64,000 nt of DNA from Candidatus Nomurabacteria bacterium (GTDB lineage: Bacteria; Patescibacteriota; Patescibacteriia; HK-STAS-PATE-3). Below are positions 1 through 54,198 of this stretch, in pieces (within the stretch, counting starts at the first letter, position 1; each line of letters opens with the position of its first letter). Where the stretch lies: positions 96,001 through 160,000 of the forward strand of contig CP060223.1 of NCBI GenBank assembly GCA_023898465.1, given 5' to 3'. A program made the position numbers and the translations under genes. The notes below the pieces were generated by a model. The model saw nothing but the letters and a program-made list of their open reading frames with translations, ran no database searches and was not told where the DNA came from.

Positions 1-728
1 TACTACGCCGCAAAGGCGTGGTCAGCATCGTGGTGTTATTGGCTCTGGCGATGAGCTACGGCGTGCTCTTAACTCAACCTTTTCTTTATCAGGCACGTGT
101 GGAGCTGCTTATTATTCAGCAGCAGTCAGAGAATCAAGATTTACTCTCTGCACTTCGCGCCACTGAACAGGTTGGTAAAGGCTTAGTTGATGTTATTAGC
201 ACCAGTTCATTCTTTGATAAGGTGCTGGCAACCGACTTTCCAATTACTGATGATTTCGGCACAAATCCGGAAGAGCGTCGCTTAGCTTGGCAAAAAACTG
301 CCCATGCATCTATTTCTCAGCAATCTGGAATCTTAACAGTCACCGTGCTGCACAAGAATAAAGAGCAGGCAGCGGTGATTGCCCGCGGCGTGGCGCAAGT
401 ACTTACCACCGAGAGTCAAGAGTTTCACGGTAAGGCAAATATCATTGTGAAGGTAGTAGATGATGTCTATACCAAGCAATGGCCTGTGCAACCAAACATT
501 CTTGGTACTACCGTAGCCGCGCTTTTCTTTGGCATCATTGCCGGTGTTGGAATTGTCGCCCTCCTTCCTTTGCCAAAAGCAAAAGAAGCCGCGCCAGCAA
601 TTCGTCGTACTGAAAATGATATGAGTGGAGCAGCGCCAAGTGCGCGAAAGACTTTGCATGAAATACGTATGAAGTCGACTCCGCCTCCGAGCCTACCGGG
701 CATCGATGAAGAGGAAGACGATCTCTAA
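1..728 (+). CDS. Polysaccharide chain-length determinant (Wzz/PCP-like) membrane protein, 5'-partial
   Basis: The reading frame is open to the window edge (frame 3), and the listed start at 18 is GTG. Two hydrophobic segments (VVSIVVLLALAMSYGVLL near the N-terminus, TTVAALFFGIIAGVGIVALL near the C-terminus) flank a soluble domain, as in Wzz-type proteins. The call rests on architecture only. Confidence 0.45.
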   Translation, partial: LRRKGVVSIVVLLALAMSYGVLLTQPFLYQARVELLIIQQQSENQDLLSALRATEQVGKGLVDVISTSSFFDKVLATDFPITDDFGTNPEERRLAWQKTAHASISQQSGILTVTVLHKNKEQAAVIARGVAQVLTTESQEFHGKANIIVKVVDDVYTKQWPVQPNILGTTVAALFFGIIAGVGIVALLPLPKAKEAAPAIRRTENDMSGAAPSARKTLHEIRMKSTPPPSLPGIDEEEDDL

Positions 729-746
729 CACGTCGTGCATTCTCAA

Positions 747-768
747 GGGATGGAAGAGCTTCCATCCC
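747..768 (+). terminator. Hairpin after the Wzz-like ORF (no T-run)
   Basis: A perfect 9-bp stem GGGATGGAA/TTCCATCCC with a 4-nt loop starts 19 nt after the stop codon. There is no U-tract, so terminator function is uncertain. It coincides with the left edge of the GC-rich island. Confidence 0.3.
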
Positions 769-861
769 GGAATGAGTGCGAGACCCGTACTCTGAACGTT
801 GACAATTGAACGTATCAGGACTGGTTCCTGCATACGACGAGATAAACTTGGAGGTTTCCGT

Positions 862-2085
862 ATGCGCTGTTTGACCATGGCGTTGTGCCTTTGGCTCATC
901 TTCGTGGCCAATGCGGCGCATGCAGGTGAGTATCAGAATCTCCGACCCGGTCCGCCGGTGTTGGAGCTGGGTGCGTTTTTCGCATCAACCTTTCCCGAAG
1001 CTCTACCACAGCTGCCAGCTGGCACGGTGGTAGCACACTTCCCGTGTCCGGTGCCGGCGACATTCGTGTTTGCCGATCGGAGTCTCCGCACCTACTCACT
1101 TCCGAGTGAGGCAAAGGTGGTGGCGACGGAGCTGCGTCGGGACGATGGTGGAGCGTACTACCAGTTGCTCTATCTCCTCTCGAATAAGCAGGCGAGCTAC
1201 GCGGAGCGATTCGCGTATCCGATCTGGCTGAATAGCGATCCGGTCTACGTCCCCAACAACACCAAACTCTTGGTATTGGAACGTGGTCCCGAGCAAGCGA
1301 CGGTTGTCACTTCTGCTCCTGTGACTGCGACACCGCAGCAGCAGGGTGAAGCGATCAAGACGACGCCGGTGGTGAGAAACACGCCCGTGTCCTCTGCGCC
1401 ATCGACTGGACGGGTTGAGGGTGAGCACATCATCCATCACCCCTTCATTCGCGGGCAGCTTGATTTGAGGACGGAGTTCCTCGGTGTGAAACCCGAGAAC
1501 ATCTTCACTCATCAAGTGATTCCATCGCTTTGGCTGAACCAACACCTTGGTTTGACCGGACGTTGGGAGCGGCACGAAGCGAAGGATCTCGATCCATCGC
1601 AGGGCTGGGGAGTCGGGCTCTGTTACCGGACAGCTCCTATACATCGATTGTCGGTCGAGTACGCTCGATTGACATTTGGTGAGATGAGTTCGTCCGGGCA
1701 AAGCATTCAGCTCGTGCATTTCGAATCCAGGCTACAAACCTGGTTCCTGCATCACGAGTTGGAAGCAGAGCAGCGGGATAACGACGCGAAGGAAGTTTGG
1801 ACTCGACTACGGTCGGGGCTTGCTTTCCAAGTCGGCTATCGTAGCCGGCTGCAGATGGGCGGAGAGTTAGCTAACCTGAACTACGAACTCGTAGCACAGG
1901 ACGGCTACTACTACGTGTCTGCACTTGGGACGCGCTTCAATCGATCTCACTACGGAGCATTTGCCAGCTTGGATACCCATCTGGGTGATCACTTCCCACT
2001 ACGACTTCTGGTCGGCGGCGGGAAGGGCAGTGTTCCAGAATGGAACTACATCAATGCCGAGCTGAGACTCGGAGTTGATTTCTGA
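862..2085 (+). CDS. Exported protein with C-terminal beta-barrel-like domain ending in Phe (barrel paralog 1)
   Basis: I moved the start to ATG 862 (GGAGG 7 nt upstream), which gives the signal peptide MRCLTMALCLWLIFVANAAHA. An N-terminal domain of about 150 aa is followed by a T/P/S-rich linker and about 220 aa ending ...LLVGGGKGSVPEWNYINAELRLGVDF. It is homologous to 4011..5207. Confidence 0.7.
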   Translation: MRCLTMALCLWLIFVANAAHAGEYQNLRPGPPVLELGAFFASTFPEALPQLPAGTVVAHFPCPVPATFVFADRSLRTYSLPSEAKVVATELRRDDGGAYYQLLYLLSNKQASYAERFAYPIWLNSDPVYVPNNTKLLVLERGPEQATVVTSAPVTATPQQQGEAIKTTPVVRNTPVSSAPSTGRVEGEHIIHHPFIRGQLDLRTEFLGVKPENIFTHQVIPSLWLNQHLGLTGRWERHEAKDLDPSQGWGVGLCYRTAPIHRLSVEYARLTFGEMSSSGQSIQLVHFESRLQTWFLHHELEAEQRDNDAKEVWTRLRSGLAFQVGYRSRLQMGGELANLNYELVAQDGYYYVSALGTRFNRSHYGAFASLDTHLGDHFPLRLLVGGGKGSVPEWNYINAELRLGVDF

Positions 2086-2335
2086 TGTACGAATCCTGGC
2101 CACTTGGTCAGTACTCATAACTCGTCGGGTGGTCAGGAGATCCGTAAGGATTTCTACAAAAGGACCTAAGGGTCCGCGACCTGTGCCGAACGCACACGGA
2201 GGACAACATGCGAAAGCGTGCTCCGCCGACTATCTGATGAGCTTGTGTAACTGACCATGCCCCAATCAACTTGTTTGGGGCTAGGGATTAACCTGCCCCG
2301 ACAACAAAAAATTGGGGCAAGCCAAGGAGGAAGCC

Positions 2336-3625
2336 TTGTTCAAGCTTCGCATCAGCGCGATCTTCGCGCTTCTCATCCTTCTGGGTGCCGGTCTCTATGG
2401 CTGCGCTCAGGAGCCCATCGTGTTCCAGCCCGATCAGGATGTGCCGACCGATCAGCTGCCGGGCGATGGCACAGCCACGCTCAGTCTGCAGATCGGCGGC
2501 GTACCGGCCCAGCACAATGGAGGCGCTTCGAGTGCTTTCATGGTGACCAATACGGTGCAGGTGATCGGCAACATCTTCCTCACCGGTGACCGACTGGACA
2601 CCGAGTGGAAGATGCAGAACTGGAGCAGCGGCGATGTCCAAATCCAGACCATGAACGGTCGTTGGTATTCGGTCGCTCCTTCGGTCGACGGCAACGTCCA
2701 GATCACCAACTTCCTCATCAACGACATCCAGCCGCAGCATTTCGTGCAGCTGGATGAGATGAAGGGGATCTTCGCCCAGGTCAAGCTGTTGCCGGATTCG
2801 TCTGGCTTCCAGTTGTATCAGCTCGAAGACAACCGGGATCAGCTGATGACGGTGCACTACCGAGTCTACGATCCTGCCCCGGCTGACTTCCAGGGACTCC
2901 AGATCGTGGGAACTTCCACGAACTGGAATCAGATGTATCCGGAGGCGATCTACAGCTCCGACTACGGTATCTGGGAGTGGTGGGGTCCGGCGTTGAAGGC
3001 GAGCGGCAACAAGGTCGCTTTCCGGATTCGCGGAAGTGGGGCTCTGCCGACCTCGTATTTGATCACTGCCCAAGGCGAAGTGAACGGTACGCCGGTTGGT
3101 GAAGAGGTCCAGCTCGACTGTACGGAGTTGGTGGAGAACGTGAATACGTACTTCGCCAGCACGACCTGGTTCACCGACCGCGGTTGGTTGGCTGGGAAGC
3201 GAGTCTACCGACTCATCATCCACGAAGATGGTGGTATCGAACAGGGATGCGGAGGCATCCCGATTCAGACGACCATCTCGATCACGAACAACCGCATTCC
3301 GCAGGATCACCACCTGATGTGTGTCTACGACGGCTACAACGACAATCAGCCGTTCGAGATTCCTCGGGTGAGCGGCAAGTGGGAAACCACGCAGATCACG
3401 CTCCATTCTGGTCCGGCGGCTCTGTCGGTCTGGGATACGAGTGACGGAGACAAGCCGATCATCACCACGGTGAAGATCGGCAGCCAGGAAGTGAAGCACC
3501 TCGAAGTGTTTCAGGATCCTGGTTCGGAGCCGACGGTTCACTTCACCTTCGTCCTTGGCGAGGGTCCGACCCTGCAACAGGGGACGGACAATCGCACTGG
3601 TACGATCGGAGGAGAGAACTACTAA
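2336..3625 (+). CDS. Lipoprotein, unknown family (lipoprotein paralog 1)
   Basis: The ORF-track start is TTG 2312. The in-frame TTG at 2336 has AAGGAGG (2324-2330) 5 nt upstream and gives FKLRISAIFALLILLGAGLYG|C (lipobox L-Y-G-C). The segment LQIVGTSTNWNQMYPE...FRIRG loosely recalls E-set/CBM-type glycan-binding domains (unverified). The C-terminus ...QGTDNRTGTIGGENY resembles that of 5222..6385. Confidence 0.7.
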   Translation: MFKLRISAIFALLILLGAGLYGCAQEPIVFQPDQDVPTDQLPGDGTATLSLQIGGVPAQHNGGASSAFMVTNTVQVIGNIFLTGDRLDTEWKMQNWSSGDVQIQTMNGRWYSVAPSVDGNVQITNFLINDIQPQHFVQLDEMKGIFAQVKLLPDSSGFQLYQLEDNRDQLMTVHYRVYDPAPADFQGLQIVGTSTNWNQMYPEAIYSSDYGIWEWWGPALKASGNKVAFRIRGSGALPTSYLITAQGEVNGTPVGEEVQLDCTELVENVNTYFASTTWFTDRGWLAGKRVYRLIIHEDGGIEQGCGGIPIQTTISITNNRIPQDHHLMCVYDGYNDNQPFEIPRVSGKWETTQITLHSGPAALSVWDTSDGDKPIITTVKIGSQEVKHLEVFQDPGSEPTVHFTFVLGEGPTLQQGTDNRTGTIGGENY

Positions 3626-3662
3626 TCGCCAGCCCTGGGAACGCTGACGATTGCACATTCTT

Positions 3663-3712
3663 GCCCCGCCCGCTACAACACTTTGTGTTGAAGCGCGGCG
3701 GGGCTTTCTTTT
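3663..3712 (+). terminator. Rho-independent terminator (island junction 1)
   Basis: The GC stem GCCCCGCCCGCT ... AGCGCGGCGGGGC is followed by TTTCTTTT. Confidence 0.8.
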
Positions 3713-3781
3713 ACCTTGGCAGGATGGAAATGTAACTAGTCTTCAAGTTCTGATGTTTGTTGAAGCAATGTTTCGTAGGGC

Positions 3782-3811
3782 TTGACAAAATAGCACTTTT
3801 CCTGCTAAAGT
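3782..3811 (+). promoter_or_regulatory. Sigma70-like promoter (TTGACA-18-TAAAGT)
   Basis: cTTGACAAAATAGCAC... lies 70 nt after the terminator. It has the same cTTGACAAAAT opening as the promoter at 7944. Confidence 0.5.
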
Positions 3812-4010
3812 TCGCCGTTAACCAATGCGTAAAACCATCTAAAAAACGAACATTTTTACCACAACGACCTTAGTCGTTTGTGCTACTTATGGACATGAAT
3901 GGCTTGAGAAATGCCTAGCATTCCTCAACCGATTCTGGACCGGAAGTACTGCAGTAATTGTCATTCTTTGACAATTGAATTCAGAAGTCATTCTCACAGA
4001 GGAGGGTCTC

Positions 4011-5207
4011 ATGCGGACCTGGTATGTGGTTCTTGCGCTACTGGCGCTCGTCTCCTTTGGGTCCGCTCGGGCCCAGGTCATCGAAATCCCGATCGACTAC
4101 GTCGCGACGGATTCGGTGATTGCGAACTGGCCGCATCTCAACATCGGGGGCAACCCGGTGTACAAGAGCGGCTACCCGGCTGATTCCTTGGCAGTACATG
4201 CTGCTCGGGACGGCTGGTTCAAGACGACCTTCAACTTTCCCGTCGGGATCTACTGTCTCGATAAGGATGGGAAGATCATCAAGGGACGTGTCGAACCCGG
4301 ACAAACCATGAAGAATGGTGCCCGGGCCGATACGCTGATCGTGTCTATTCTAGCTGAGACGCCGGAGCAGACGCTGTATCAGATCCACGTTATTCAGGCG
4401 TGCGGTAACCCCGTGCTCTGGTCAGGCGTCGGTGTGTTGAAAGCACCGAAGCCGACTGGCCCACTGCCGCCGCCAACCCTGACTGTTCCGAAGCCCCCAG
4501 CACCACCTCCCATTGCGGAGACGGAGCCGCCGATCGTAGTAGAGCCTGAAAAACACTTCAGGCTACCGATCGATGGTTGGGCTGGAGTGGCAGGAAGTAA
4601 GTCACTCGAGTCCAAGGCTTGGTCGCTCTTCGAGGGCGTCTACATCGACTTTCCGTTGATCGTGGACAAGCTCACGTTCAAGTTTGGGGCGGCAACGTCT
4701 CAGGCAAACTACGAGAAGCTCCGTGGTCGGACGAGTTACCGAGGTGTTGGCGGCGATATGAGTCGCTGGCAAGTCGGCCTCTTCTACCGGCCTTGGGACA
4801 ACATCCAGGTTACCGGCCTGATTGGTCAGCAGTATGACCATAAGGCTGGCGACTGGCAGGATGGCGTCCAGCTGGAAGGAGTGCTGGGTTTCCCCATCGG
4901 TCGCTGGTGGAACGATGAGGATGTCAGCTACGGCACTACGACCAAAGCACTTTGGTTCCGCACTCGACATGCCTACAAGCTGTCGGGTGAAGGAATGCAT
5001 TGGTGGTCGATCGGCGGCGAGTTTGTCTATGACTCGTTCATGGACAACGATGGTCGATTCTACACTTCGCGCGTTCACGTATTTGGGAAGCGAGAGTTTC
5101 CCGGATTCTGGAATCGCGAGGCTGTCTTCATCTTCGGTGGCGGAAGAGGGAGTAAAGACGAGGCTTGGGGCCTCATAGCAGAACTAGGGCAGCGGCTCTG
5201 GTTCTAG
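4011..5207 (+). CDS. Exported protein with C-terminal beta-barrel-like domain ending in Phe (barrel paralog 2)
   Basis: ATG 4011 follows AGGAGG. The signal peptide is MRTWYVVLALLALVSFGSARA. A Pro-rich linker (PKPTGPLPPPTLTVPKPPAPPP) precedes a C-terminus ending ...FIFGGGRGSKDEAWGLIAELGQRLWF, which aligns with the C-terminus of 862..2085. Confidence 0.7.
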   Translation: MRTWYVVLALLALVSFGSARAQVIEIPIDYVATDSVIANWPHLNIGGNPVYKSGYPADSLAVHAARDGWFKTTFNFPVGIYCLDKDGKIIKGRVEPGQTMKNGARADTLIVSILAETPEQTLYQIHVIQACGNPVLWSGVGVLKAPKPTGPLPPPTLTVPKPPAPPPIAETEPPIVVEPEKHFRLPIDGWAGVAGSKSLESKAWSLFEGVYIDFPLIVDKLTFKFGAATSQANYEKLRGRTSYRGVGGDMSRWQVGLFYRPWDNIQVTGLIGQQYDHKAGDWQDGVQLEGVLGFPIGRWWNDEDVSYGTTTKALWFRTRHAYKLSGEGMHWWSIGGEFVYDSFMDNDGRFYTSRVHVFGKREFPGFWNREAVFIFGGGRGSKDEAWGLIAELGQRLWF

Positions 5208-5221
5208 AAGGGAGATTCCTG

Positions 5222-6385
5222 ATGCGTTTTCTCCGTTTCATGGCCGCTGCGCTGTTGCTGCTCGGTGCCTTCGGGTGCCAGAAGCTCCCCAGCGAGCCGA
5301 TCGACACCGGTGGCAGTCAGCCGCCGCAGGAGTACAACGGACCTGAGTCTGGTCTCGCGCTCAACTTCGAGCGTGGCGCCGGACAATACGAATTCGTTTC
5401 CGACATGTTCATCCATCAGGGTGGCGTGACGGATTGGGCGACTGTAACAGTCAACCCGGATAACTTCTTCCTCACCACCTACGCTGGACACTGGTATAGC
5501 GACATGCTGACCAGGGACGGTGTGCCGGTGCTGGGAGACTACACTCTGGCCGGTTCGACTCCGTCCAACTACTGGATGGATGAGAACCGCGGTGTTTTCG
5601 CGAGCCACATGGTTCTCGTCAGCGACGCTGACAGTGCCTGGGTCTGGCAGTGGCCCTCCAATGCCAGCCAGTTGGTCGACCTCGACATCGAGGTGCTCAA
5701 CTGGTCATCGGCAACGGATCTTGGCGTGGTCGGTACGCCGACGTGTTACGTCGTGCACCCGGCCATGTTGAACCACTTGCATGACAACGTCTACGGACGC
5801 TCGCTACGCCTCCTGCCCGGTGATGCCAAAATCGCTGTGATGGATATGTACGAGCGAGTTGGTCTGGGTGATGCAGTCACGGTCCGTATCAACGGCACCG
5901 AGCTGGTCGCCTACGTCGATGACTTCACGCATGACAACCAGCCGACGGTACATCGTTACTTCCGCTTTCACGTGAACGCGGATGGGACGGTGAGCTCGAT
6001 CGGTACTGAGAACCGATTCTCGTATGGGAACACGGTCTCGGTCAGCAATTCCAATATCGATCCCAGCGCTACGGTGTATCTCAACGGCACAGGCCTCACC
6101 AACGGTGAGATGATGCCGATGACCTATGTCGGCAGCTGGACCTGGCAGCTCACCGGTCTCACGACCTGGGTGGGCGAGCAGGATTTGAGGGTGAGTATGG
6201 AAGACGGGACTGGTGTGTTTCGTACCGTTCGCTTGAACGGAACGGAGTTGCACCACCTGGCTGCCGTGCCGCTCGACCCGGATCCTCCGATCCAGGTCTT
6301 CCGATGCACGCCCATGCATGACCACACGGTGATGCAGGGCGAGGACAACCGGGCCGCTGACATCGGCATGGAGACCGGCGGATGA
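5222..6385 (+). CDS. Lipoprotein, unknown family (lipoprotein paralog 2)
   Basis: ATG 5222 has GGGAG upstream. The signal is MRFLRFMAAALLLLGAFG|C (lipobox). The C-terminus ...MQGEDNRAADIGMETGG resembles that of 2336..3625. Confidence 0.7.
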   Translation: MRFLRFMAAALLLLGAFGCQKLPSEPIDTGGSQPPQEYNGPESGLALNFERGAGQYEFVSDMFIHQGGVTDWATVTVNPDNFFLTTYAGHWYSDMLTRDGVPVLGDYTLAGSTPSNYWMDENRGVFASHMVLVSDADSAWVWQWPSNASQLVDLDIEVLNWSSATDLGVVGTPTCYVVHPAMLNHLHDNVYGRSLRLLPGDAKIAVMDMYERVGLGDAVTVRINGTELVAYVDDFTHDNQPTVHRYFRFHVNADGTVSSIGTENRFSYGNTVSVSNSNIDPSATVYLNGTGLTNGEMMPMTYVGSWTWQLTGLTTWVGEQDLRVSMEDGTGVFRTVRLNGTELHHLAAVPLDPDPPIQVFRCTPMHDHTVMQGEDNRAADIGMETGG

Positions 6386-7869
6386 GCGAAGAAGGTGATG
6401 CGACAAGTCGTGAGGTGCCTCCCCAAGTAAGAGAGGTACTTCGCCAAATGCAACGAGTCGCGAAGAGAGATCGCAAAAAGAAGGCGAAGCATCGAGCCCG
6501 CAGAGAGGAACGGAAAAAACAGGCAAAGGCAAGAGTGAAAGCTCGAACGGGTGAGCAGTCAACAGGTTCTCCAAGGAAAGGAGATGAACCTCGTCGTCCT
6601 GTTCCGCCGCCTCAGCCTGCACCAAGTGCTTCGCCGTCCTACGCATCTCTACTGGGAGATAAGCTTGGGGGAATTCCTCAAGTAAGACGAAATCCGAAGA
6701 GAGCAGAAACAAACCTGGGAGGCTCGCCGAGCTTCCCCCAAGATGAGGAGGGTCATGTAATGCCCGAGGTGTCCATGCGCGAAGAAGGAGGATCGAGGAA
6801 GCTTTTGATTGCCACTGTGGCGATCTTGTGCGTCCTCTTGGTCGGGGTGCTGATCTACACGCATCCCTGGAGTCCTCAGCAAGGTCTGACGGAGACCGAG
6901 GTGTCGGATATGATCAGGGAGTTCGCTGATCAGATGCCGGCTCCGGTCGCTGAAATCCCCGATGACGTGGTACGCAAGGGTGACCTTGCTTCGATGCAGC
7001 CGGCGGCGATCACTCTCAGCGCTTTCGACGAGACCTATCTCGATACGCTGTGGGCGACGGTCAAGGATCCGGTGACCGGGAAGATCGACTCGACGATGGT
7101 CGTGAAGACCCGGACGAGGAATCCCATCACTGATTTGCAGAAGGACGTGAAGAGTACCAATGCCGAGGCTCGTGCAGCCAAGGTTGCGGCACGGAATGCG
7201 GAGAAGCGTCTCAAGGAGACGCCGACCCAATTCGCCGTGACCGTGCCTTCGACTTCCACATCGACTTCGCTTCACCAGCCTGGTGGAGTGCAGTTGGGTG
7301 GTACCACGACCACGACGGCGCCTGTGCAGATGACGACTCGAACGAGTACGCAAGCCGGGCTGGTGGCTGGTACGATCGGAGGTGGTTCGCCGCCCCCGCC
7401 GCCGGCTAGCAACGTCGCTGTGTCCATGACTACCACGATGGTTCCGGCCGGTGAACAGGTGATGGGTGGGGACGGCTTGATGAAGCAGGGTCCGGCCGTT
7501 GCCTTTGTCTACAACGGTCAGACCTACGTTCGTCGGGATCTGGTGCAGCGCAACAAGTACGGCGACCCGATCAACCCCAGTCGAGCTGACCAGAACTTCT
7601 ACGTGATGGCCGGCGAGCAGGGGATGAACTGGAAGCTCGTCAATCCGGCCAAGCAGAAGATGACGGTCCAGGGCGACTATTTGGTCTGGCCTGGCGTGAT
7701 CAAAGGTCCTTTCCAGGTCGGCTGGGTGGATCCGAACGACCCGGCCTACATGCCTGAAAGTGGCGTAGTCTGGGCTCCGATCGCTGAGTTCTACTCCGGC
7801 TACGACGGGACCTTCTGTCGTGACCCCGACTATCAGTTGAGGGCTGTGGCGATCCAGCAGATGCCGTAG
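6382..7869 (+). CDS. Single-pass membrane protein with highly basic N-terminus and C-terminal domain shared with 8047..9225
   Basis: The ATG overlaps the upstream stop (ATGA). The N-terminal ~130 aa are Lys/Arg/Pro-rich (KKKAKHRARREERKKQAKARVKAR). There is one TM segment, LLIATVAILCVLLVGVLIY. A conserved C-terminal domain spans 7465-7866. Confidence 0.65.
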   Translation: MSEEGDATSREVPPQVREVLRQMQRVAKRDRKKKAKHRARREERKKQAKARVKARTGEQSTGSPRKGDEPRRPVPPPQPAPSASPSYASLLGDKLGGIPQVRRNPKRAETNLGGSPSFPQDEEGHVMPEVSMREEGGSRKLLIATVAILCVLLVGVLIYTHPWSPQQGLTETEVSDMIREFADQMPAPVAEIPDDVVRKGDLASMQPAAITLSAFDETYLDTLWATVKDPVTGKIDSTMVVKTRTRNPITDLQKDVKSTNAEARAAKVAARNAEKRLKETPTQFAVTVPSTSTSTSLHQPGGVQLGGTTTTTAPVQMTTRTSTQAGLVAGTIGGGSPPPPPASNVAVSMTTTMVPAGEQVMGGDGLMKQGPAVAFVYNGQTYVRRDLVQRNKYGDPINPSRADQNFYVMAGEQGMNWKLVNPAKQKMTVQGDYLVWPGVIKGPFQVGWVDPNDPAYMPESGVVWAPIAEFYSGYDGTFCRDPDYQLRAVAIQQMP

Positions 7870-7897
7870 TCCGCGACTGCAACGTTCTTTACTTCAA

Positions 7898-7936
7898 CCC
7901 CCGCTATATCTACGGATGTAGCGGGGCTTTCTTTTT
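7898..7936 (+). terminator. Rho-independent terminator (island junction 2)
   Basis: The stem CCCCCGCTA ... TAGCGGGG is followed by CTTTCTTTTT. Confidence 0.8.
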
Positions 7937-7943
7937 ACTATGC

Positions 7944-7972
7944 TTGACAAAATGCCAAAAATAGCATACTAT
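7944..7972 (+). promoter_or_regulatory. Sigma70-like promoter (TTGACA-17-TACTAT)
   Basis: cTTGACAAAATGCC... sits immediately after the terminator. Confidence 0.55.
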
Positions 7973-8046
7973 AGCCGGTTCTTTTTGCACCTCACAATCT
8001 AGTTACACAAGCGAGAGACACTACACATCCCAACCGGGAGGACTAC

Positions 8047-9225
8047 ATGCTCCAACGTTTCTTTGCGTGGTCTTTGCTGGCGCTCTTCGCCTTCGGCTGT
8101 GCCGGAGGTAGTGCCACGCTGAAGCAGCATCAGCAGCCCGTCGGGCAGGTCTACGTGGGCGACTGCGTGCCGTCGGATGGCATTCATCCGACTGGCTACC
8201 TTCGCCTGACCAAGCCGCCGGAGGACTTCAACTCGATGCTGTCGATGTGGCACGCTGTTCAGGCCGAGGGTTCATCCGAGCCCTCGAAGATCGAGGTCGA
8301 CTACATCCGGGTCTACGCCCACGTAGCCGGCCGCGATTCACTGCTCGACAGCGACGAGTACAACGACATGATCGGGGACGGAGGTCTCTATCTTCGTCAT
8401 CCCTCGTGGTTCTACAACGATGACCATACGAGTCTGCCCTGCGAGTTCGACATGGTCAACGGTTACTTGGTCTTGCGACCGAGCGACTACCCGGATCGAG
8501 TCTTTCACTGGTGGAATTCCTACCATCCAGCGGAGGATGTCTGGCGTGTCACTATTCCGGCCGGTGCTACCAACTGCTGGGCAGAGACTCGGATTCGGAT
8601 TACGGGTCCAGCCTATGTCCAGGGCGGCATTGACTACTGGCGTTCACTCACTGCTCCGTACGGCGGCGTCGAAGTGAACAACCGGGAAGCCTGCATGTCC
8701 AACTGGACTTGCTCGGCTGATCCGGGTTGGCAGACCATCGTGGTTGGTAAGGACAAGCCGCAGGGCGACAGCGCTGTGGTCGATGCCGATGAGAACGGGA
8801 AACCGAAAGTCGTCCAGGCTCCGGTCTACGATCCTTTCGAGAGCAAGGCCGACGGTCTCCTCAAGAAAGGCGCTGCTGTCTGTTTTGTACAAGACGGACG
8901 CACCTACTTCCCGAAGGAGATCGTGGCGACGAACAAGTACAGCGATCCGGCTCGCCCCAAGAATGGCAAGTACTACTTGCTGGGCGGGGTGAAGCCATGG
9001 GCTATCGCCGGCGACGATCAAGAGCTCCGGGAAAACGGGGATTACCTCTACTATCCCGGCGTGGTCGACAAGGTGTGTCAGGTGGGCTGGGAGGATCCGG
9101 CCGACGCTTCGGCCGATCCGTCCGGAACCGTATGGAGCGCTTCAGCGGAACTTTTCTCGGGTCGCCCGGGATCAGTTTCGAAGAACGGTCAGTACGGCTA
9201 CCTGCCAGTCAATCTCTCCAACTAG
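8047..9225 (+). CDS. Lipoprotein with jelly-roll-like N-domain and shared C-terminal domain
   Basis: ATG 8047 has GGGAGG 5 nt upstream. The signal is MLQRFFAWSLLALFAFG|C (lipobox). ...IEVDYIRVY... recalls lectin/GH16-type jelly rolls (unverified). The C-terminal domain at 8848-9222 is homologous to 7465-7866. Confidence 0.7.
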   Translation: MLQRFFAWSLLALFAFGCAGGSATLKQHQQPVGQVYVGDCVPSDGIHPTGYLRLTKPPEDFNSMLSMWHAVQAEGSSEPSKIEVDYIRVYAHVAGRDSLLDSDEYNDMIGDGGLYLRHPSWFYNDDHTSLPCEFDMVNGYLVLRPSDYPDRVFHWWNSYHPAEDVWRVTIPAGATNCWAETRIRITGPAYVQGGIDYWRSLTAPYGGVEVNNREACMSNWTCSADPGWQTIVVGKDKPQGDSAVVDADENGKPKVVQAPVYDPFESKADGLLKKGAAVCFVQDGRTYFPKEIVATNKYSDPARPKNGKYYLLGGVKPWAIAGDDQELRENGDYLYYPGVVDKVCQVGWEDPADASADPSGTVWSASAELFSGRPGSVSKNGQYGYLPVNLSN

Positions 9226-9240
9226 GAGAAGGTGATTCAC

Positions 9241-9274
9241 CCCGGTGCATGCAATGCGTGCGCCGGGTTTTCTT
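9241..9274 (+). terminator. Rho-independent terminator (island right edge)
   Basis: The stem CCCGGTGCATGC / GCGTGCGCCGGG (with G-U pairs) is followed by TTTTCTT. Confidence 0.7.
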
Positions 9275-9275
9275 A

Positions 9276-9304
9276 TTGACCATGGGCAATATTTTTGCTA
9301 TAGT
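9276..9304 (+). promoter_or_regulatory. Sigma70-like promoter (TTGACC-17-TATAGT)
   Basis: The promoter directly abuts the terminator and lies 30 nt upstream of ATG 9335. Confidence 0.55.
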
Positions 9305-9334
9305 CGCCTGTTCACTTTCTTTTACTGAGTTGTA

Positions 9335-11107
9335 ATGTTACGCAATATTCTTGTCATTCTCGGACTCGCCATTTCACTCACCAGCTTCACGCCAAAGCAG
9401 GAGAGTCGCGATGGCGTGTATGCGTTTACCACGCCTCCTTTAAGTATTGGTCAAGGAGTGGTGGTGACAAATGATGGCATTGTGATTGGCGATGGCGTGA
9501 CTGATTCCCGGCAAGGAATACAGGAGCTGCTTAGTGGTGATGACTTGGAACATTTTCTTGACCAAAGCTCTCAGCAGTTTGATGCCGTAGAGCTGCGTAT
9601 CTGGACATGGTTCCTGGGTCAAAACGATTTTACTATTGGCACGGTGAATAATTTCCTTGCCCGTGCTCATGCCCACGGCTTGCAAGTGTACTTAAATACT
9701 TGGGAATATCCTGGCACACATCCCGACCTTCTGCCTGCTGAGTATCAGGCATATAAACTTGCTGACACCGGACAACGCGTGCCGGCCCTAGTGAATGATG
9801 GACAAATCAGCGCGCAGCACATTGATAAAGCAAACCCCGCTGCACTGGAATGGATGAGTGGGCAACTGCGGAGTGCGCTGACTTCTTTTGACGTTTTCGA
9901 TGGATACCTCATTGTTGAGGATAGGGTTTCCGATTGGGTGCATGGGTCTTTCCCACAGTATGTACGTTATTGGGATTCACCGACCTATTCCGATGCAGCG
10001 CTTGATTCATTTCAACATTATCTCCTACTGCATGGTCAGGATGCAACACAGCGATTCCCAGTGGATCGTCCGGAGTTAGTTTCTCAATTCACCCAGTATG
10101 TTCCTTCAGCCCCAGAAAGTGCTTTATGGAAGTATTGGTATCAATGGCGCTTTGAACTTTTTGCTGACTATGTGGAGAGTCTGAGTAATGCGGTGAAGTC
10201 AGTGCAAAGGGTGCCAGTGCTTTACATGCCTTGGCAACGTGTGGTGGATGAATTTGATTACGCCTACGCTGATGATTGGTCAGCCAATCGTTGGGATGTT
10301 GGATACGGTCCGGGCAATCCCGAGAATGCCATCTTCGGCGTCTCGCTTCACACCCTGGCAAAACGCGGATCAATTGATGCCTACGTGCATGAATTTGGAG
10401 AGGATGGTACGCATGAGCTCTGGCCAATGTCTTTTAATGCGCTGCAGTTAGAAAAAGCCAAAATTGCTTTGTCAGATTCTTATGTTACCCTAGGCAGCTT
10501 TATTCAATTTTTTAATTACGAAGGTAGAGAAATAGTTTCCCCTGAACTACTTCAAGATGCCTTAGCCATCGGACGGCAAAACGAGGCAAAGATTTTTGTA
10601 GCTTACGATGTTGCCACACTGTATGATCGTTCAGGTCGCTATGATGCACATACCTCAGCGCTTTGGCAGCAAGCAAGAACACATGCATATGCCATTGATG
10701 AAGAGGAAATCCGAAACGCAAGTCAGCTAGCGCCAGCGCAGGTTTTTGCTCGAAAATTACCTGAACAGATTCCAGAAGGAGTGGCCGCCTGGACTGCCGA
10801 TGATGGGTATGTGTATGTGCGGACCGAGGCTCTGCCCGGTAACGGACCATACTATGTCGTATACGATCACTGGAATGCACCACTACTTGATGCGCAGCAC
10901 CTTATGGAATACTATCCAGAGCATGGTTTAGTCGCTATACATGCTGATGGGTTAAAAGGCGCTGCTTTTCAAATCATTACTCCGGGACCGCAGGGTAGCG
11001 TCGCGTGGTCAGAAATTCGTGAACAGCTTTGTGAGCTGGGGTATCAAGGGATCGTATGTAGCCCAAATAGTTGGCTTTATCAACCAGTGGGGCTTCATTC
11101 CATGTAG
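9335..11107 (+). CDS. Exported or anchored 590-aa protein, family not recognised
   Basis: This is a long ORF in host-like composition. The N-terminus is hydrophobic (MLRNILVILGLAISLTS). It is possibly glycosidase-like, but I could not verify that. Confidence 0.6.
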   Translation: MLRNILVILGLAISLTSFTPKQESRDGVYAFTTPPLSIGQGVVVTNDGIVIGDGVTDSRQGIQELLSGDDLEHFLDQSSQQFDAVELRIWTWFLGQNDFTIGTVNNFLARAHAHGLQVYLNTWEYPGTHPDLLPAEYQAYKLADTGQRVPALVNDGQISAQHIDKANPAALEWMSGQLRSALTSFDVFDGYLIVEDRVSDWVHGSFPQYVRYWDSPTYSDAALDSFQHYLLLHGQDATQRFPVDRPELVSQFTQYVPSAPESALWKYWYQWRFELFADYVESLSNAVKSVQRVPVLYMPWQRVVDEFDYAYADDWSANRWDVGYGPGNPENAIFGVSLHTLAKRGSIDAYVHEFGEDGTHELWPMSFNALQLEKAKIALSDSYVTLGSFIQFFNYEGREIVSPELLQDALAIGRQNEAKIFVAYDVATLYDRSGRYDAHTSALWQQARTHAYAIDEEEIRNASQLAPAQVFARKLPEQIPEGVAAWTADDGYVYVRTEALPGNGPYYVVYDHWNAPLLDAQHLMEYYPEHGLVAIHADGLKGAAFQIITPGPQGSVAWSEIREQLCELGYQGIVCSPNSWLYQPVGLHSM

Positions 11108-11135
11108 GGAGTTCTTTGTCAGAGGAGGAGTGAAT

Positions 11136-11600
11136 ATGCAGTGGAGGTTGTGGATCTACGTGTTGGCTTGCGTACTGTGCGCATCGCAGTCTGCGTACGG
11201 TCAGTCTGAGCAATTCCAGCCAATGTACAGCATAGCGCCAGAGTATCCACTTTCAGCGTGGATTGCTGGTGAGTCTGGGTCGGTGATGGTGGGAATGCAG
11301 ATTGACCCGGTCGGCCGTGTGGAGGAGGTCTGGGTTCAGTCTTCAACAAGCTCGTTGTTTGAGCGGTATGCGCTCGAGGCGGCGAAGCAGTGGGTTTTTG
11401 TACCGATCATGCCCATGGTGGATCTGATCGACGCGGTGGATGGCGTTATGGTCTTGCGTAGAATTCCGGAGCTTGAAACAGCGAGTTACCTGGAAACACA
11501 TCCGGGAATCATTGACAGTCTCGTCTACGAGTGGACGGAAAAACAGGACCAACCGTCCCCGGTCCGTAGCGTCAGTATCCCTTTCAATTTCAACCACTAA
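11136..11600 (+). CDS. TonB C-terminal-domain-like exported protein
   Basis: I moved the start to ATG 11136 (AGAGGAGGAG upstream). The signal peptide is MQWRLWIYVLACVLCASQSAYG. PEYPLSAWIAGESGSVMVGMQIDPVGRVEEVWVQSSTSSLFERYALEAAKQWVFVP matches the TonB_C pattern (P.YP..A...G.eG.V.v.f.id..G.v......SS....ld.aAl.A...w.F.P). Confidence 0.6.
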   Translation: MQWRLWIYVLACVLCASQSAYGQSEQFQPMYSIAPEYPLSAWIAGESGSVMVGMQIDPVGRVEEVWVQSSTSSLFERYALEAAKQWVFVPIMPMVDLIDAVDGVMVLRRIPELETASYLETHPGIIDSLVYEWTEKQDQPSPVRSVSIPFNFNH

Positions 11601-11634
11601 GTACGAGCCGCTTATCCTCTGGGTAGGCGGCTTT

Positions 11635-42659: not shown

Positions 42660-44894
42660 ATGCCAAATAAATCATTAAAAAAATCTATGCCAAGTACAAA
42701 AGGATCACGCACGGAGGAGGTTGGAGTAAAGACTCGCACTCGAGTTGATACCGCATTTGGTTTGTTGTTGATAGGTGGAGCACTTAGCGTTGGTATGTTT
42801 GCCTTTTTCTTCTTTAGCCAGGGATTCTCAAAGGAAGCTACTTCATTTGGCAATAAGGTGAACGAGCAACATCGCGCATCAAGCCTTTGGCCACATGTGA
42901 GAACGGCGATTCACTTCAATCATCGGCCTGTAAATAGCACAACAGAGGCAAATTTCTTAGCCACGCACTTTGACTATTATGTTGGTCAAGTCGGTACTTA
43001 TGCAAATTATTTACGTCAGGTTAATCCAAACATCAATCTGGCCTTTATGCGCAGCGTACGAGCTATTAACAGCGTGCCGGAATTAGAAACTTGGCTGGCA
43101 GATCATCCTGAATATGATGAGGAAGAATTTTTCTTGCACTACACCCAAGATACCTTGGTTGGACCTAGTGGAAATCAGATTCTCGTAAAGGGTTGGCGAG
43201 AGGAGTGCTCACCAAATTGTGAGCCAGCCGCAACGGCAACTACACGTGAAGAGAGTCGAGTGCCAGATTCTGGTGAGTTTGCCCGGGGTTGGTATGTGCC
43301 AAATCCAAACTATGAAGGTCTGCCTGTTTTTCAAGCTGACATGCTTGCTTTGCGACAAAGTTGGTACGGAATTGATGGCACTTTCTTTGATTGGTGTGCT
43401 GGAGCATCTGTACAAAGCGAGAATCACCTGAGTCGCACTGCTGAGTATGCCGACATAGATGATTCAGATAATTTTCGCCATCCTTTTGTAGGTGATTCAA
43501 TCGCTATCATGGATAAGGTTTTGGATCGCTATAACGAGGAATATGCCGATCAGTATGGATCAATTGATTGGATTCCTTGTAACACGGTAGCTGGATATTG
43601 GACCTATGATCACGGCAACATTGAAAACAATGACTACCGAGACGCTTTACTTGCCAGCGAGTCAAACAGCGAGTTTTTCTGGGAAGTGTGGATGCAATAT
43701 AATGATACTTATCCACTTACCTCAGGGCCAAGTCGAGATGTGCATTTGAAGTATCTCAAAGATACCATTGCGCTATCAAACCAGAAACAAACTGGACTCG
43801 AATTGGTTGCCCTGGGTGATCAGGCTAGCGATCGAACAAACACCTTCTTACTCGGCTTAGCGTATCTCGTCCAAACACCTGATCGCTCGGTAGTGTCATA
43901 TCGACTTGATGTGCCAGCTCATAATTCAGATGAGCATCTACAAAATTGGGCCTGGTTACCACAGTTAGCTTACGACATTGGCCAACCTGCTCAGAACCCA
44001 GCTGGTATTCGAGATGTCTTTGGCAATCAAAACACCAGTGAATTCTATGAATGGGCGACCGGAGCTGATCCGGGAAATTCAGGACATACCTATTCGATTT
44101 ATGCTCGACAATACGAGAATGCATTGGTGCTTACCAAAATGCGTCAGGCTCGTGAGGATGCTTGGGGAGATGCAACCGCGACCACGCATGAGCTTGATCA
44201 GCCATATCGAGTCTTACGGGCAGATGGAAGTGTAGGAGATGAAGTGAGTCAAGTTACTTTGCGTGATAACGAAGCAGTTATCCTCATTCGTACAGAAGCT
44301 CCATTAATCCAAAATGTGCAGACCGACCGTGTCTGGAGCACCCGAGCTTTAATTAGCGCTAAGGTGCAGGACGCACAATCAGTTGTTGTGCAGTACGGTA
44401 AGACCACCCAGTATGGCAATGAACTGGTTTTGAAGCGCTCACGGGTTGATGGTACTTACTCCGTCAATATTAATCGCCTCACTCAAGGCACGCTCTATCA
44501 CTATCGAATAAAGGCAACGGGTCAAAACGGCGCGACAGTGTATTCAAACGATTACAACTTCCGCACGCTGCAGAATTCCTTATCTTTGAAAGATGTTATT
44601 CATGTTTTACGAGATGATGGGACCATCGATGTCACCGTGGAATCGCCAAATGCGGATTTAGTCCAGCTGACGTATAACTCAAAGAAAACACCAAACGTTA
44701 CTGTTACCCTTGAGGAAGCGAGTGAGGGCGTCTTCACCACAACACTTTCTGGATTATTGCCTAATGAGCAATATACCTACAAGGTGCTCACACAACAGGG
44801 AAAAACAAAAGCGTATGCCTCGGGCAGTTTTACCCCTCGGAAGATAGATGAAGATATGTTCCCCAGCATCACACGCACGACAGTAGAAGAATAA
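42660..44894 (+). CDS. Membrane-anchored 744-aa extracellular protein with two C-terminal FN3-like domains
   Basis: The N-terminal TM segment is FGLLLIGGALSVGMFAFFFF. VQYGKTTQYGNE...GTLYHYRIKATG... fits an FN3/PAP-N-type domain pattern. I do not recognise the catalytic-looking central domain. Confidence 0.6.
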   Translation: MPNKSLKKSMPSTKGSRTEEVGVKTRTRVDTAFGLLLIGGALSVGMFAFFFFSQGFSKEATSFGNKVNEQHRASSLWPHVRTAIHFNHRPVNSTTEANFLATHFDYYVGQVGTYANYLRQVNPNINLAFMRSVRAINSVPELETWLADHPEYDEEEFFLHYTQDTLVGPSGNQILVKGWREECSPNCEPAATATTREESRVPDSGEFARGWYVPNPNYEGLPVFQADMLALRQSWYGIDGTFFDWCAGASVQSENHLSRTAEYADIDDSDNFRHPFVGDSIAIMDKVLDRYNEEYADQYGSIDWIPCNTVAGYWTYDHGNIENNDYRDALLASESNSEFFWEVWMQYNDTYPLTSGPSRDVHLKYLKDTIALSNQKQTGLELVALGDQASDRTNTFLLGLAYLVQTPDRSVVSYRLDVPAHNSDEHLQNWAWLPQLAYDIGQPAQNPAGIRDVFGNQNTSEFYEWATGADPGNSGHTYSIYARQYENALVLTKMRQAREDAWGDATATTHELDQPYRVLRADGSVGDEVSQVTLRDNEAVILIRTEAPLIQNVQTDRVWSTRALISAKVQDAQSVVVQYGKTTQYGNELVLKRSRVDGTYSVNINRLTQGTLYHYRIKATGQNGATVYSNDYNFRTLQNSLSLKDVIHVLRDDGTIDVTVESPNADLVQLTYNSKKTPNVTVTLEEASEGVFTTTLSGLLPNEQYTYKVLTQQGKTKAYASGSFTPRKIDEDMFPSITRTTVEE

Positions 44895-46558: not shown

Positions 46559-46918
46559 ATGGACAGCGCAACTCTTGAACAAATCAAAGCCAAATTATTG
46601 CAACAAAAGGAGCAGCTACAATCTGAGTTACAGCGAGAATCTTCGCCAACTCCGGATGAGGTAGATGGTCGCACCGCATCTTTCCCTGACTATGGCGATC
46701 ATGATGATGAAAACGCCTCTGAGGTAGCAGATTATGCGACCAATATGCAGGTGGAGGAAAACCGGGAGGAATTGCTTGCTTCGATAGAAAAAAGCTTGAC
46801 CGAAATTGAGCAGGGTAGCTATGGGAAGTGTCAGAGCTGCGGCAAAGAAATTGCAGCTGAACGGCTCTTAGCAAATCCAACCGCGCAAACGTGTCTGAGC
46901 TGCGCCAATCAAGCTTAA
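46559..46918 (+). CDS. DksA/TraR-family C4 zinc-finger protein
   Basis: I moved the start to ATG 46559. A coiled-coil N-terminal region is followed by CQSCGKEIAAERLLANPTAQTCLSC. Confidence 0.75.
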   Translation: MDSATLEQIKAKLLQQKEQLQSELQRESSPTPDEVDGRTASFPDYGDHDDENASEVADYATNMQVEENREELLASIEKSLTEIEQGSYGKCQSCGKEIAAERLLANPTAQTCLSCANQA

Positions 46919-47376
46919 GTCTCTTTAGCAGCACACATCGGTTTAGCATAGTACTAGGCCTTTGCCTTTTGGTGCTTGATCGTTTTTTTAAAGCCCTAGT
47001 GCTGCATGGGTTTACTTGGCCAAACCCTGATGCTTGGTTAAGTATTGGATATTATCCAAATCCAAATTTTTTTGCAGATACTAATTTAGCTTACCCGCTC
47101 ATCATTGGTATTACCACAGTTGTTCTCTTGTTCGTCATTGGACTATTTGTGTATGGCATACGCTATCGTTATCCAGGGATTGTGGCAGCTGGTGTGTGGA
47201 TTATTCTGGGAGGAATGAGCAATTTTTGGGATCGACTCAAGTATCAGCACGTGCTTGATTATGTTGGTGTCGCACATTGGCCGGTATTTAACATTGCCGA
47301 TATCCTTATTTTTATCGGCGTGATTTGGTATGGTGTGATTATCCTACGTAGTTGGAAAAGTCAGGGGATGCGTTGA
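46891..47376 (+). CDS. lspA: Lipoprotein signal peptidase (signal peptidase II)
   Basis: GGMSNFWDRL...LDYV...WPVFNIADILIFIGV matches the LspA motifs. The start is GTG and overlaps the upstream gene by 28 nt, so it is uncertain. Confidence 0.8.
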   Translation: MSELRQSSLSLFSSTHRFSIVLGLCLLVLDRFFKALVLHGFTWPNPDAWLSIGYYPNPNFFADTNLAYPLIIGITTVVLLFVIGLFVYGIRYRYPGIVAAGVWIILGGMSNFWDRLKYQHVLDYVGVAHWPVFNIADILIFIGVIWYGVIILRSWKSQGMR

Positions 47377-53600: not shown

Positions 53601-54198
53601 GTACGAGTTATTTATGGGACCATTTGAGGATATGATTCCGTGGTCAACCAAGGGTATCGTGGGTGTGCATCGCTTCTTAAATCGTGTGTGGGAACTTTAT
53701 CGTAAAGTTACAGAAGAGACGGCCCAAGTAACAGAAGAGAGGGACATTCACAAAGCTGTGAAAAAGGTTGGGGAAGACCTCGAGGCTTTTCGTTTCAACA
53801 CCGCGGTGAGCACTTTGATGGAATATTTTAATCACTTCCGTGATGAAGTGCAGCAGGGTAGGCTCGATAAAGAAGCAGCAGAAAAGTTTCTCGTGATCCT
53901 TTTCCCATTTGCGCCGCACCTTGCCTCAGAGCTCTGGGAGCAGTTAGGAAAGAAGAGCGATATTCGCGAACAATCATGGCCAAACTTTGATCCAAACGCT
54001 TTACAAGCGGAGACCGTCACGATCGGTGTGCAGATTAATGGCAAAGTGCGCGCCTCCATAAGCCTTTCACCAGAAGCAAGCGAAGCAGAAGCGCTGGAGC
54101 TAGCCTTAGCCGAAGAAAATATTCAACGCTATCTTCAAAAGGGACAGCCCAAGAAGGTTATTTATCGTGCAGGAAAAATTCTCAATCTGATCGCCTGA
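50614..54198 (+). CDS. leuS: Leucyl-tRNA synthetase with ~387-aa two-domain insertion before CP1
   Basis: HIGH (HVGH), KMSKS, the Zn-knuckle CPKD...CERCG, the CP1 start TTRPDT and AHDQRDNEFA are all present. At 1194 aa it is far longer than E. coli LeuRS (860 aa). Confidence 0.95.
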   Translation: MSMKNVVPEGEYNPASIEAKWQEHWNKKPDQAKDFAHDPKRYLLIEFPYPSGDGLHVGHVRSYAALDVLARYSRLKGFNVLYPIGWDAFGLPTENYAIKTGVHPRVATDKNIATFRRQLKALGLSFDWSREVDTTDPKYYRWTQWIFLQFYKAGLAYQAEIPINWCPKDKIGLANEEVVDGKCERCGTEVTRKMQKQWMLKITAYADRLLRDLDTVEYVEKIKTQQKNWIGKSEGAEISFQIASKESQKPRFVLLHGFQGSAKGNFFPWLKDELVAKGYEVEVPELPNSAHPTEEEQVSYVLEHCRFDENTIVFGHSLGTVVAMKVIEKLPTKVAGLVMAGGFTQADFSDHDRPFRDTFTWNFDFQAIRDKAGFIKVLHDVHDDAVPEGAGEALAKALEVPCYKVTANEEHFCAKQEPYLLAHLMPNTLLVGTQNQAKVEMLRRALAPYPNIHLISLSDIGKVDDQALVEGDDFRANAKMKADFYHRATGLPTISTDHILWIEKWPEDNGFITHIRKLANPKSGRATDEELAEWIKKFIDKNGESRTAFHYAIGYADEKGVQGFVSIQREYMLKANPAKARWEGYAVGAFLRDPVTDAYREEMPAEIAFDRFFATVRNEIVPQVFDMSTLTVFTTRPDTIFGVTYMVVAPEHELLAKYQSHITNWDEVQKYVREAAKKSDMERTELAKEKSGVELKGIQAVNPANGEVIPIWVADYVLSSYGTGAIMAVPAHDQRDNEFAKKYSLQIREVVRGFNRVGEKKDIVYSGEGVLVNSQDFDGEKSEDAKKNIVRWLEEKGLGHSAVNFKLRDWVFSRQHYWGEPIPIIHCPKCGAVPVPEKDLPVELPHVEKYQPTNTGASPLAAIEDWVQVKCPKCKGEASRETDTMPNWAGSSWYFLRYSDPHNSKAFADKKKLEYWLPVDIYNGGNEHTTLHLLYSRFWHKFLFDQGLVPTPEPYQHRHSHGIVLAEDNRKMSKSWGNVVNPDDYVQEYGADSVRMYELFMGPFEDMIPWSTKGIVGVHRFLNRVWELYRKVTEETAQVTEERDIHKAVKKVGEDLEAFRFNTAVSTLMEYFNHFRDEVQQGRLDKEAAEKFLVILFPFAPHLASELWEQLGKKSDIREQSWPNFDPNALQAETVTIGVQINGKVRASISLSPEASEAEALELALAEENIQRYLQKGQPKKVIYRAGKILNLIA

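Follow-up and report, generated by a model that had tools for sequence, protein, structure and literature searches.

Duplicated genes for predicted 12-stranded beta-barrel proteins, paired with lipoproteins, in a genome of the Patescibacteria

Beta-barrels of the outer-membrane type are generally taken to mark diderm bacteria and the organelles that descend from them, and the KdgM/NanC sugar channels have charged tracks. Here we analysed a stretch of 64,000 nucleotides from a Candidatus Nomurabacteria bacterium (assembly GCA_023898465.1, contig CP060223.1, positions 96,001 to 160,000; hereafter the window), which opens with a gene cluster that includes two genes for putative barrel proteins, A1 and A2, and two genes for lipoproteins, L1 and L2. 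The barrels are predicted to be 12-stranded and of the outer-membrane type, and their genes keep company with a polysaccharide co-polymerase (PCP)-like gene upstream and a gene for a partner protein downstream. Patescibacteria have been described as monoderm bacteria that lack an outer membrane and the beta-barrel assembly machinery (BAM) (PMC12102498; bioRxiv 10.1101/2021.05.31.446380), and the Candidate Phyla Radiation (CPR) lies within the Terrabacteria, where loss of the outer membrane has been inferred (bioRxiv 10.1101/2021.05.31.446380). In the literature we found no prior description of outer-membrane-protein (OMP)-like barrels in Patescibacteria.

Among the closest described systems, the KdgM/NanC oligosaccharide porins (PDB 4pr7, 2wjr and 8xua) are 12-stranded, as are the C-terminal barrels of type Va autotransporter beta-domains (BrkA 3qq2, Hbp 3aeh and NalP 1uyo); type Ve intimin and invasin (5g26 and 4e1t) carry their passenger C-terminal to the barrel. 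Slam joins a 14-strand barrel to TPR repeats, and SusC/D systems consist of a 22-strand TonB-dependent barrel and the alpha-helical SusD. The diderm exopolysaccharide exporters AlgE/AlgK, PgaA/PgaB, PelB/PelC and BcsC have barrels of 16-18 strands and TPR partners. Capsule export by Wzc, a PCP protein, and Wza, an outer-membrane polysaccharide export (OPX) protein, makes use of an alpha-helical barrel, that of Wza. Finally, the OmpM/SlpA tethers of diderm Terrabacteria are built from a wall-proximal N-terminal domain, a linker and a C-terminal barrel.

A1 and A2 share the architecture that had been recognised in the original prediction, which was made from the DNA of the window alone. Each begins with a signal peptide that looks cleavable (AHA-G in A1, ARA-Q in A2), followed by an N-terminal domain of ~110-150 residues, a Pro-rich linker (Pro/Thr-rich in A1) and a C-terminal domain of ~210-220 residues that ends in Phe (...LRLGVDF and ...ELGQRLWF, respectively). 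In A2 a conserved, Cys-containing N-terminal domain spans residues ~34-145, the linker residues 146-187 and the barrel residues 188-396. NCBI annotates A2 as a protein of 288 residues (USN53624.1, H6760_00415), which falls within the same 90% cluster as A2, and orthologous sequences support a full-length protein of 398 residues with the signal peptide and the N-terminal domain. The C-termini of the two barrel proteins had been called clearly homologous, which overstates what the two sequences can prove, because direct comparison of A1 with A2 by BLASTP is weak (E=0.11). The homology itself stands: orthologues bridge the two proteins (E=5e-6 and 2e-4), and hhalign comparison of the A1-subfamily and A2-subfamily alignments gave a probability of 99.1% (E=7.9e-19); the 298 aligned columns extend into the N-terminal domain. 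These comparisons give firm support for reading A1 and A2 as full-length homologues.

The family to which they belong is tiny. An exhaustive hidden Markov model search with the C-terminal domain returned 20 matches among 1.84 billion representatives, and a profile built from A2 only had matches in two of 185,579 species genomes. In the family alignment of 22 sequences, 21 carry a signal peptide and 19 end in an aromatic residue (F in 15, W in three and Y in one), which bears out the earlier suggestion of a terminal aromatic beta-signal; members of the A1 subfamily have hydrophobic residues at positions -1, -3 and -5, and those of the A2 subfamily end in E-x-G-x-R-L-W(F). Two homologues, P0015 and P0017, consist of the barrel only (239-242 residues), and two distant barrel proteins have a weakly LysM-like N-terminal domain (E=1.2e-3, below the curated cut-off). 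None of the 22 members matched a Pfam OMP family or a PDB sequence, and A1 had no Pfam or NCBIfam match. Searches of the cluster proteins against Pfam, NCBIfam, PHROGs, PADLOC and PDB sequences gave nothing above cut-offs. A phage or defence reading was dropped, as neither the barrel nor the lipoprotein genes had a PHROG or PADLOC match.

The fold of the C-terminal domain was predicted with AlphaFold2, using A2 and the 22-sequence family alignment to produce five models. From the single sequence the pLDDT (predicted local distance difference test) score was 35.7; with the alignment the best model had a mean of 83.5 (81-83.5 over the five models), and most of the C-terminal domain scored above 90. 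In these models residues 188-396 form 12 antiparallel strands. A Foldseek comparison with the PDB was consistent with an outer-membrane-type barrel, and a fold search of BFVD with the barrel returned generic OMP barrels only. The barrel anticipated in the original prediction is what structure prediction returned, and we regard a 12-stranded outer-membrane-type barrel as a high-confidence prediction for this domain; on this model, the A1/A2 family would be new in sequence but would have a fold that is already known. Over the 22 sequences, the dyads of the strands alternate between faces that are 62% and 30% hydrophobic, a difference that 5000 shuffles within the strands never reached. All 12 of the strand positions with the highest conservation (G256, G272, W315, R317, R319, G335, G376, G378, E391, R252, D302 and P215) lie on the polar face, and the hydrophobic face is variable across the family. 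Variation on the hydrophobic side combined with conservation on the polar side fits a lipid-facing exterior around a functional lumen, and is the reverse of what is seen in a soluble fold.

In structural alignments, the KdgM/NanC porins share 7-9% identity with the barrel, and no member of the family matched the KdgM family of Pfam. Unlike these porins, A1 and A2 have an extra N-terminal domain and a Pro-rich tether, their genes have obligate lipoprotein and PCP-like neighbours, and their host phylum is thought to lack an outer membrane. By analogy, the conserved Arg-x-Arg, Trp and Glu residues on the putative lumen face recall the charged tracks of KdgM/NanC.

The arrangement of N-terminal domain, linker and small barrel had also been likened to a miniature type V autotransporter, in which the ~110-150 residues of the N-terminal domain would be threaded through the protein's own 12-strand barrel. 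A C-terminal barrel of 12 strands is predicted here as in type Va, but A1 and A2 have neither the helical or extended pore segment nor a passenger on the far side. The A2 linker (residues 146-187) is Pro-rich, scores below 50 in pLDDT and has no predicted helix; none of the 22 members matched Autotransporter PF03797 at E<=0.1; and the family includes the barrel-only P0015 and P0017 as well as proteins with LysM-like N-terminal domains. Threading would in addition leave the conserved PCP-like and lipoprotein neighbours unexplained, and BAM is not expected in the host. We consider an autotransporter very unlikely. An inverse autotransporter of type Ve was ruled out, as the A1/A2 family ends with the last barrel strand and nothing follows the barrel.

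Beyond the barrel itself, the genes around it are conserved. The order A1-L1-A2-L2-C-...-D (the C genes and D are listed in Table 1) is repeated in GCA_964637345.1 (our locus L003), in GCA_043800725.1 and GCA_043827125.1 (L004/L005), in a Logan contig (L009) and in a groundwater scaffold (L015). Since this order is kept in other assemblies while A2 orthologues are only 42-46% identical, the duplication is old and both copies have been retained; from these sequences, the barrel-lipoprotein pair appears to have been duplicated in tandem long ago in the clade of the window and to have diverged into A1/L1 and A2/L2. The order of PCP-like gene, barrel gene and partner gene is found in every locus we read, including those of the most distant members (L010, L012 and L013/14). 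In L004, L009, L010, L012, L013/14 and L015, the gene immediately before that of the barrel protein is a PCP-like orthologue. The partner, a protein of 346-487 residues that is a lipoprotein in the window's clade, is encoded directly downstream of the barrel gene at every locus examined, so that the pairing proposed for the window recurs in other genomes. Our best reading of these neighbourhoods is that the conserved core probably comprises three adjoining genes, for a Wzz/PCP-like bitopic protein, a barrel protein exported by Sec and a surface-anchored, beta-rich partner.

The PCP-like protein of the window is 41-60% identical to these orthologues (32-60% among all PCP-like proteins compared), and two membrane segments are visible in its sequence. 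Its matches to Wzz (E=8.7e-4, 20.0 bits against a cut-off of 25.5) and GNVR (E=4.8e-3, 17.2 against 27.7) lie below the cut-offs, as does that to TIGR01006, the CpsC family (E=5.6e-8, 32.5 against 296). Among the orthologues, Wzz is weakly matched in L004 and L010 and GNVR in L012, and both are faint in L013/L014. A Wzy_C gene lies downstream in L012, and the L003 cluster contains a DUF4832 gene. In its short length (254 residues) and its sub-cut-off matches, the PCP-like protein differs from the Wzc of capsule export. Likewise, the predicted 12-strand barrels of A1 and A2 are unlike the wider barrels of the exopolysaccharide exporters and the alpha-helical barrel of Wza, and no Poly_export, TPR or synthase genes were found in the cluster.

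The lipoproteins L1 and L2 are also homologous to each other, as pairwise alignment confirmed (345 residues, E=1e-10), and the relation reaches E=6e-20 among their orthologues. All 10 L1/L2 orthologues have a G-C lipobox; the lipoboxes in the window read LYGC in L1, AFGC in L2 and AFGC in C2, a further cluster gene, and the window encodes LspA. No Lgt was seen in the 64-kb window. The matching tails of L1 and L2, noted at the outset, reflect a genuine motif, QGxDNR, in which Q and N are invariant across six sequences. It is unlikely to serve as a C-terminal sorting signal, as the motif is internal in the L012 partner. CBM_48 is weakly matched in two L1 orthologues, in corresponding places of the two proteins (E=6e-4 and 0.019, both under the cut-off), which points to a possible CBM48-like module in L1. 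By eye, a motif of the GDWNGW type looks similar in the partners of the distant loci.

A pairing of this kind had suggested Slam or SusC/D logic, which did not hold up in our searches. The barrel family had no match to DUF560 or TPR, and 12 strands are predicted in place of the 14 of Slam; neither the barrel nor the lipoprotein genes matched TonB_dep_Rec, Plug or SusD, and the L1/L2 family, which had no match to a helical-repeat family, matches only the weak CBM_48, a beta-sandwich, in contrast to the alpha-helical SusD. A looser version of the idea is a nutrient-uptake pair: the surface lipoprotein would bind an oligosaccharide of environmental or host origin and pass it to the barrel as a channel, with D as a glycan-processing enzyme. 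The weak CBM_48 matches in L1 orthologues, the DUF4832 gene in the L003 cluster and the giant CBM-bearing proteins encoded elsewhere in the window would fit such a pair. It is nonetheless improbable in our view, given the absence of SusC, SusD and TonB-dependent features, a TonB_C protein in the cluster that has no TonB anchor, the lack of a recognisable hydrolase family in D and, as the invariant neighbour, a protein like the PCP family, which is tied to polymer assembly and export.

The reading we favour, to which we assign a probability of roughly 45%, is that the PCP-like protein, the barrel and the lipoprotein form a Patescibacteria-specific envelope complex that conducts or holds a surface glycan. 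Signal peptides, lipoboxes and the LspA gene in the window indicate that both barrel proteins and both lipoproteins are exported. The polar barrel face with its invariant Arg-x-Arg, Trp, Glu and Gly residues, as computed from the strands, would line the lumen. As the number of strands is even, the N-terminal domain would sit on the same side as the C-terminus, and we read this domain and its Pro-rich tether as a putative cell-proximal wall anchor and not as a passenger. The barrel, the PCP-like protein and the glycan-binding-like lipoprotein may then pass or hold a poly- or oligosaccharide across the outermost envelope layer, in a manner that might resemble KdgM/NanC-type sugar channels and barrel-plus-lipoprotein exopolysaccharide exporters. 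Both the direction of transport (export or uptake) and the layer in which the barrel would sit are matters of inference.

The same anchor could instead be part of a relic or newly evolved staple between the wall and an outer lipid layer, in the style of OmpM, OmpA or intimin-LysM, with the lipoprotein as a second tether and no transport at all. Like the OmpM/SlpA tethers, A1 and A2 have an N-terminal domain, then a linker, which is Pro-rich here, and a barrel at the C-terminal end, and the model puts their two termini on one side; two distant members have the LysM-like N-terminal domain (E=1.2e-3), TSP3 (Ca-binding) repeat proteins are encoded next to the cluster, and CPR bacteria belong to the Terrabacteria with their inferred outer-membrane loss (bioRxiv 10.1101/2021.05.31.446380). 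Against these stand the lack of SLH and OmpA_C domains, the existence of barrel-only members and the very few genomes that carry the family, which would be odd for a core structural element. Moreover, the conserved Arg, Trp and Glu on the lumen face suggest contact with a ligand, and no report of an outer membrane is known from the phylum. A staple is therefore rather unlikely in our judgement.

Several observations weigh against the envelope complex that we favour. With the host regarded as monoderm and without BAM, neither a membrane to hold the barrel nor a machine to assemble it is known, and no Omp85, Lpt or Lol genes were found in the 64-kb window and the fetched flanks of the 1.08-Mb genome. 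The barrel prediction is derived from a shallow alignment (22 sequences) and is hence indirect, and strand alternation alone is no proof of membrane insertion, because the strands of the soluble N-terminal domain alternate equally (0.31). The PCP, CBM48 and LysM assignments all lie below curated cut-offs, so that the link to glycans is weak, and the link between barrel and lipoprotein is one of gene adjacency here. In addition, the cluster differs in composition, with 53-58% GC (window 1-10000) versus 45-48% in the rest of the window. The same contrast is present near the relatives L003 (1-10000) and L010 (7000-14000, 0.49-0.57 versus 0.38-0.43), and may possibly reflect lateral acquisition among CPR bacteria or a constraint on composition. 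No lateral donor outside the A1/A2 family was found in the databases searched (1.84 billion representatives and 185,579 species genomes).

Some of these points would fit an alternative in which the organism has no barrel in a membrane of its own. The domain would be a soluble wall or secreted beta-protein whose hydrophobic face is buried, in an oligomer or by lipoprotein acyl chains, and whose OMP-like model is a default of AlphaFold, or else a barrel delivered to the outer membrane of a diderm host. The monoderm view of the phylum (PMC12102498), the shallow alignment and an alternation that is not specific to membrane barrels are all in line with it, and one module-bearing metagenome-assembled genome labelled Gammaproteobacteria could be a product of host-epibiont co-binning. 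The five AlphaFold2 models agree, however (pLDDT 81-83.5), a 12-strand barrel is too wide for its core to be filled by hydrophobic residues, conservation is highest on the polar face, opposite to a soluble fold, and the C-terminal aromatic signature is kept. On balance we hold this alternative to be unlikely.

Contamination or mis-binning from a diderm bacterium was rejected as a source of the module: the window and a second assembly each join the module to CPR-type rpoD, dnaG, groES and groEL on one contig, and three assemblies cover the module junctions in the source organism. In that second assembly, GCA_043800725.1, a 38-kb contig (JAZDMR010000020.1) carries the module together with an rpoD-dnaG-groES-groEL-ppsA block that is syntenic with the window. 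The GroEL of the window is 100% identical to USN53638.1 of Candidatus Nomurabacteria; all of its organism-named matches were to Patescibacteria or Parcubacteria, and a few were labelled only as 'bacterium'. GCA_964637345.1 (CAZWTD010000006.1, L003/L007), which carries the module, is titled 'uncultured Gammaproteobacteria bacterium'. A GroEL of the Patescibacteria type, P0026, is 83% identical to that of the window; if it lies on the module-bearing contig of GCA_964637345.1, the assembly would be either mislabelled or an epibiont binned together with its host.

The open reading frame (ORF) list places nine genes of the plus strand in one run, at positions 1-11,600 of the window (Table 1). The four genes of the two pairs are present where the original prediction had placed them, with the spacing it gave: 250 nucleotides separate A1 from L1 and 14 separate A2 from L2. 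The stop codon of L2 overlaps the start of C1. A pattern scan placed terminator-like hairpins at 7899-7926, 9241-9267 and 11605-11633; together with a promoter-like site upstream of A2, these signals, which come from pattern matching only, make A2-L2-C1 look like one transcription unit, and C1 is probably co-transcribed with A2-L2. A gene for a TSP3-repeat (Ca-binding) protein precedes the PCP-like gene.

Table 1. Coordinates of the cluster genes, of a promoter-like site and of LspA, in window positions.
Feature	Position	Strand	Basis or remark
PCP-like gene	1..728	+	3' part only; whole gene = 254 aa, begins 36 nt before the window
A1, putative barrel protein	862..2085	+	ORF; NCBI USN53622.1, 'hypothetical protein'
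L1, beta-rich lipoprotein (lipobox LYGC) with conserved QGxDNR tail and possibly a CBM48-like module	2336..3625	+	ORF, L1/L2 alignment, tail comparison
Promoter-like site 5' of A2: TTGACA, 18-nt spacer, TAAAGT, with TG	3782..3811	+	Consensus scan only
A2, putative barrel protein	4011..5207	+	ORF; NCBI USN53624.1
L2, lipoprotein; lipobox AFGC, L1 paralogue	5222..6385	+	ORF, alignments; NCBI USN53625.1, 'hypothetical protein'
C1, membrane-anchored; Lys/Arg-rich N-terminus, one hydrophobic segment, conserved 130-aa C-terminal domain	6382..7869	+	
C2, lipoprotein (AFGC) with C1-type C-terminal domain	8047..9225	+	Orthologues in L009, L003, L004
D, secreted 590-aa protein; family unassigned, conserved at cluster end	9335..11107	+	
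TonB_C-only secreted protein, 154 aa	11136..11600	+	Pfam TonB_C E=3.2e-11
LspA (signal peptidase II), outside the cluster	46891..47376	+	Pfam Peptidase_A8 E=1.7e-17

C1 and C2 share a C-terminal domain without a family assignment (38% identity over 130 residues, E=1e-21), and with it the cluster has a third element in two copies; the domain is paired in L009 too and is present in L003 and L004. D is 38-49% identical to its orthologues in L003 and L004 and had no Pfam or PDB match. The TonB_C-only protein, which is kept at the cluster end in the source organism, lacks both the membrane anchor and the Pro-rich spacer of TonB. In L004, an insertion sequence element with an rve integrase (4487-5365) lies between the L1 and A2 orthologues, and genes for a serine recombinase and a Toprim protein are found just downstream of the cluster.

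Elsewhere in the window, at 56887-63896, a secreted protein of 2046 residues with CBM_4_9 is encoded, preceded by a TSP3-repeat protein, and at 42660-44894 a secreted protein of 744 residues with CBM_48, fn3 and Pur_ac_phosph_N. The leucyl-tRNA synthetase (50614-54198, 1194 residues) carries an inserted alpha/beta-hydrolase domain (Ser_hydrolase/Abhydrolase) at residues ~250-450, where it separates the catalytic core from the editing domain; a related genome encodes comparable hydrolases as genes of their own (L017).

Even read modestly, the cluster would define a novel family of proteins and a conserved envelope module of three genes that is likewise new, made up throughout of 'hypothetical proteins'. 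A conserved, duplicated and selected OMP-like family with a beta-signal, in a closed-looking CPR genome of 1.08 Mb, clashes with reconstructions of envelope evolution in which CPR bacteria have lost the outer membrane, and we tentatively entertain the idea that the module signals something fundamentally unexpected in the CPR envelope. It is possible, if doubtful, that a small CPR clade makes genuine membrane-embedded, OMP-type 12-strand barrels with a C-terminal aromatic signal, which have a tether to the wall and, as partners, lipoproteins and a PCP-like protein. If so, these cells would have an outer layer of lipid, inherited from the diderm ancestor of the Terrabacteria or invented anew; alternatively, barrels would be assembled independently of BAM in a monoderm envelope, or the epibiont would install them in the outer membrane of its host. 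Should the host genome prove to be without outer-membrane biogenesis genes, the finding would become more interesting, not less. For a group with so little-characterised an envelope, the family offers a definite protein whose location can be sought, and it may show by what means episymbionts export glycans to their surface, anchor them there or make contact with their hosts.

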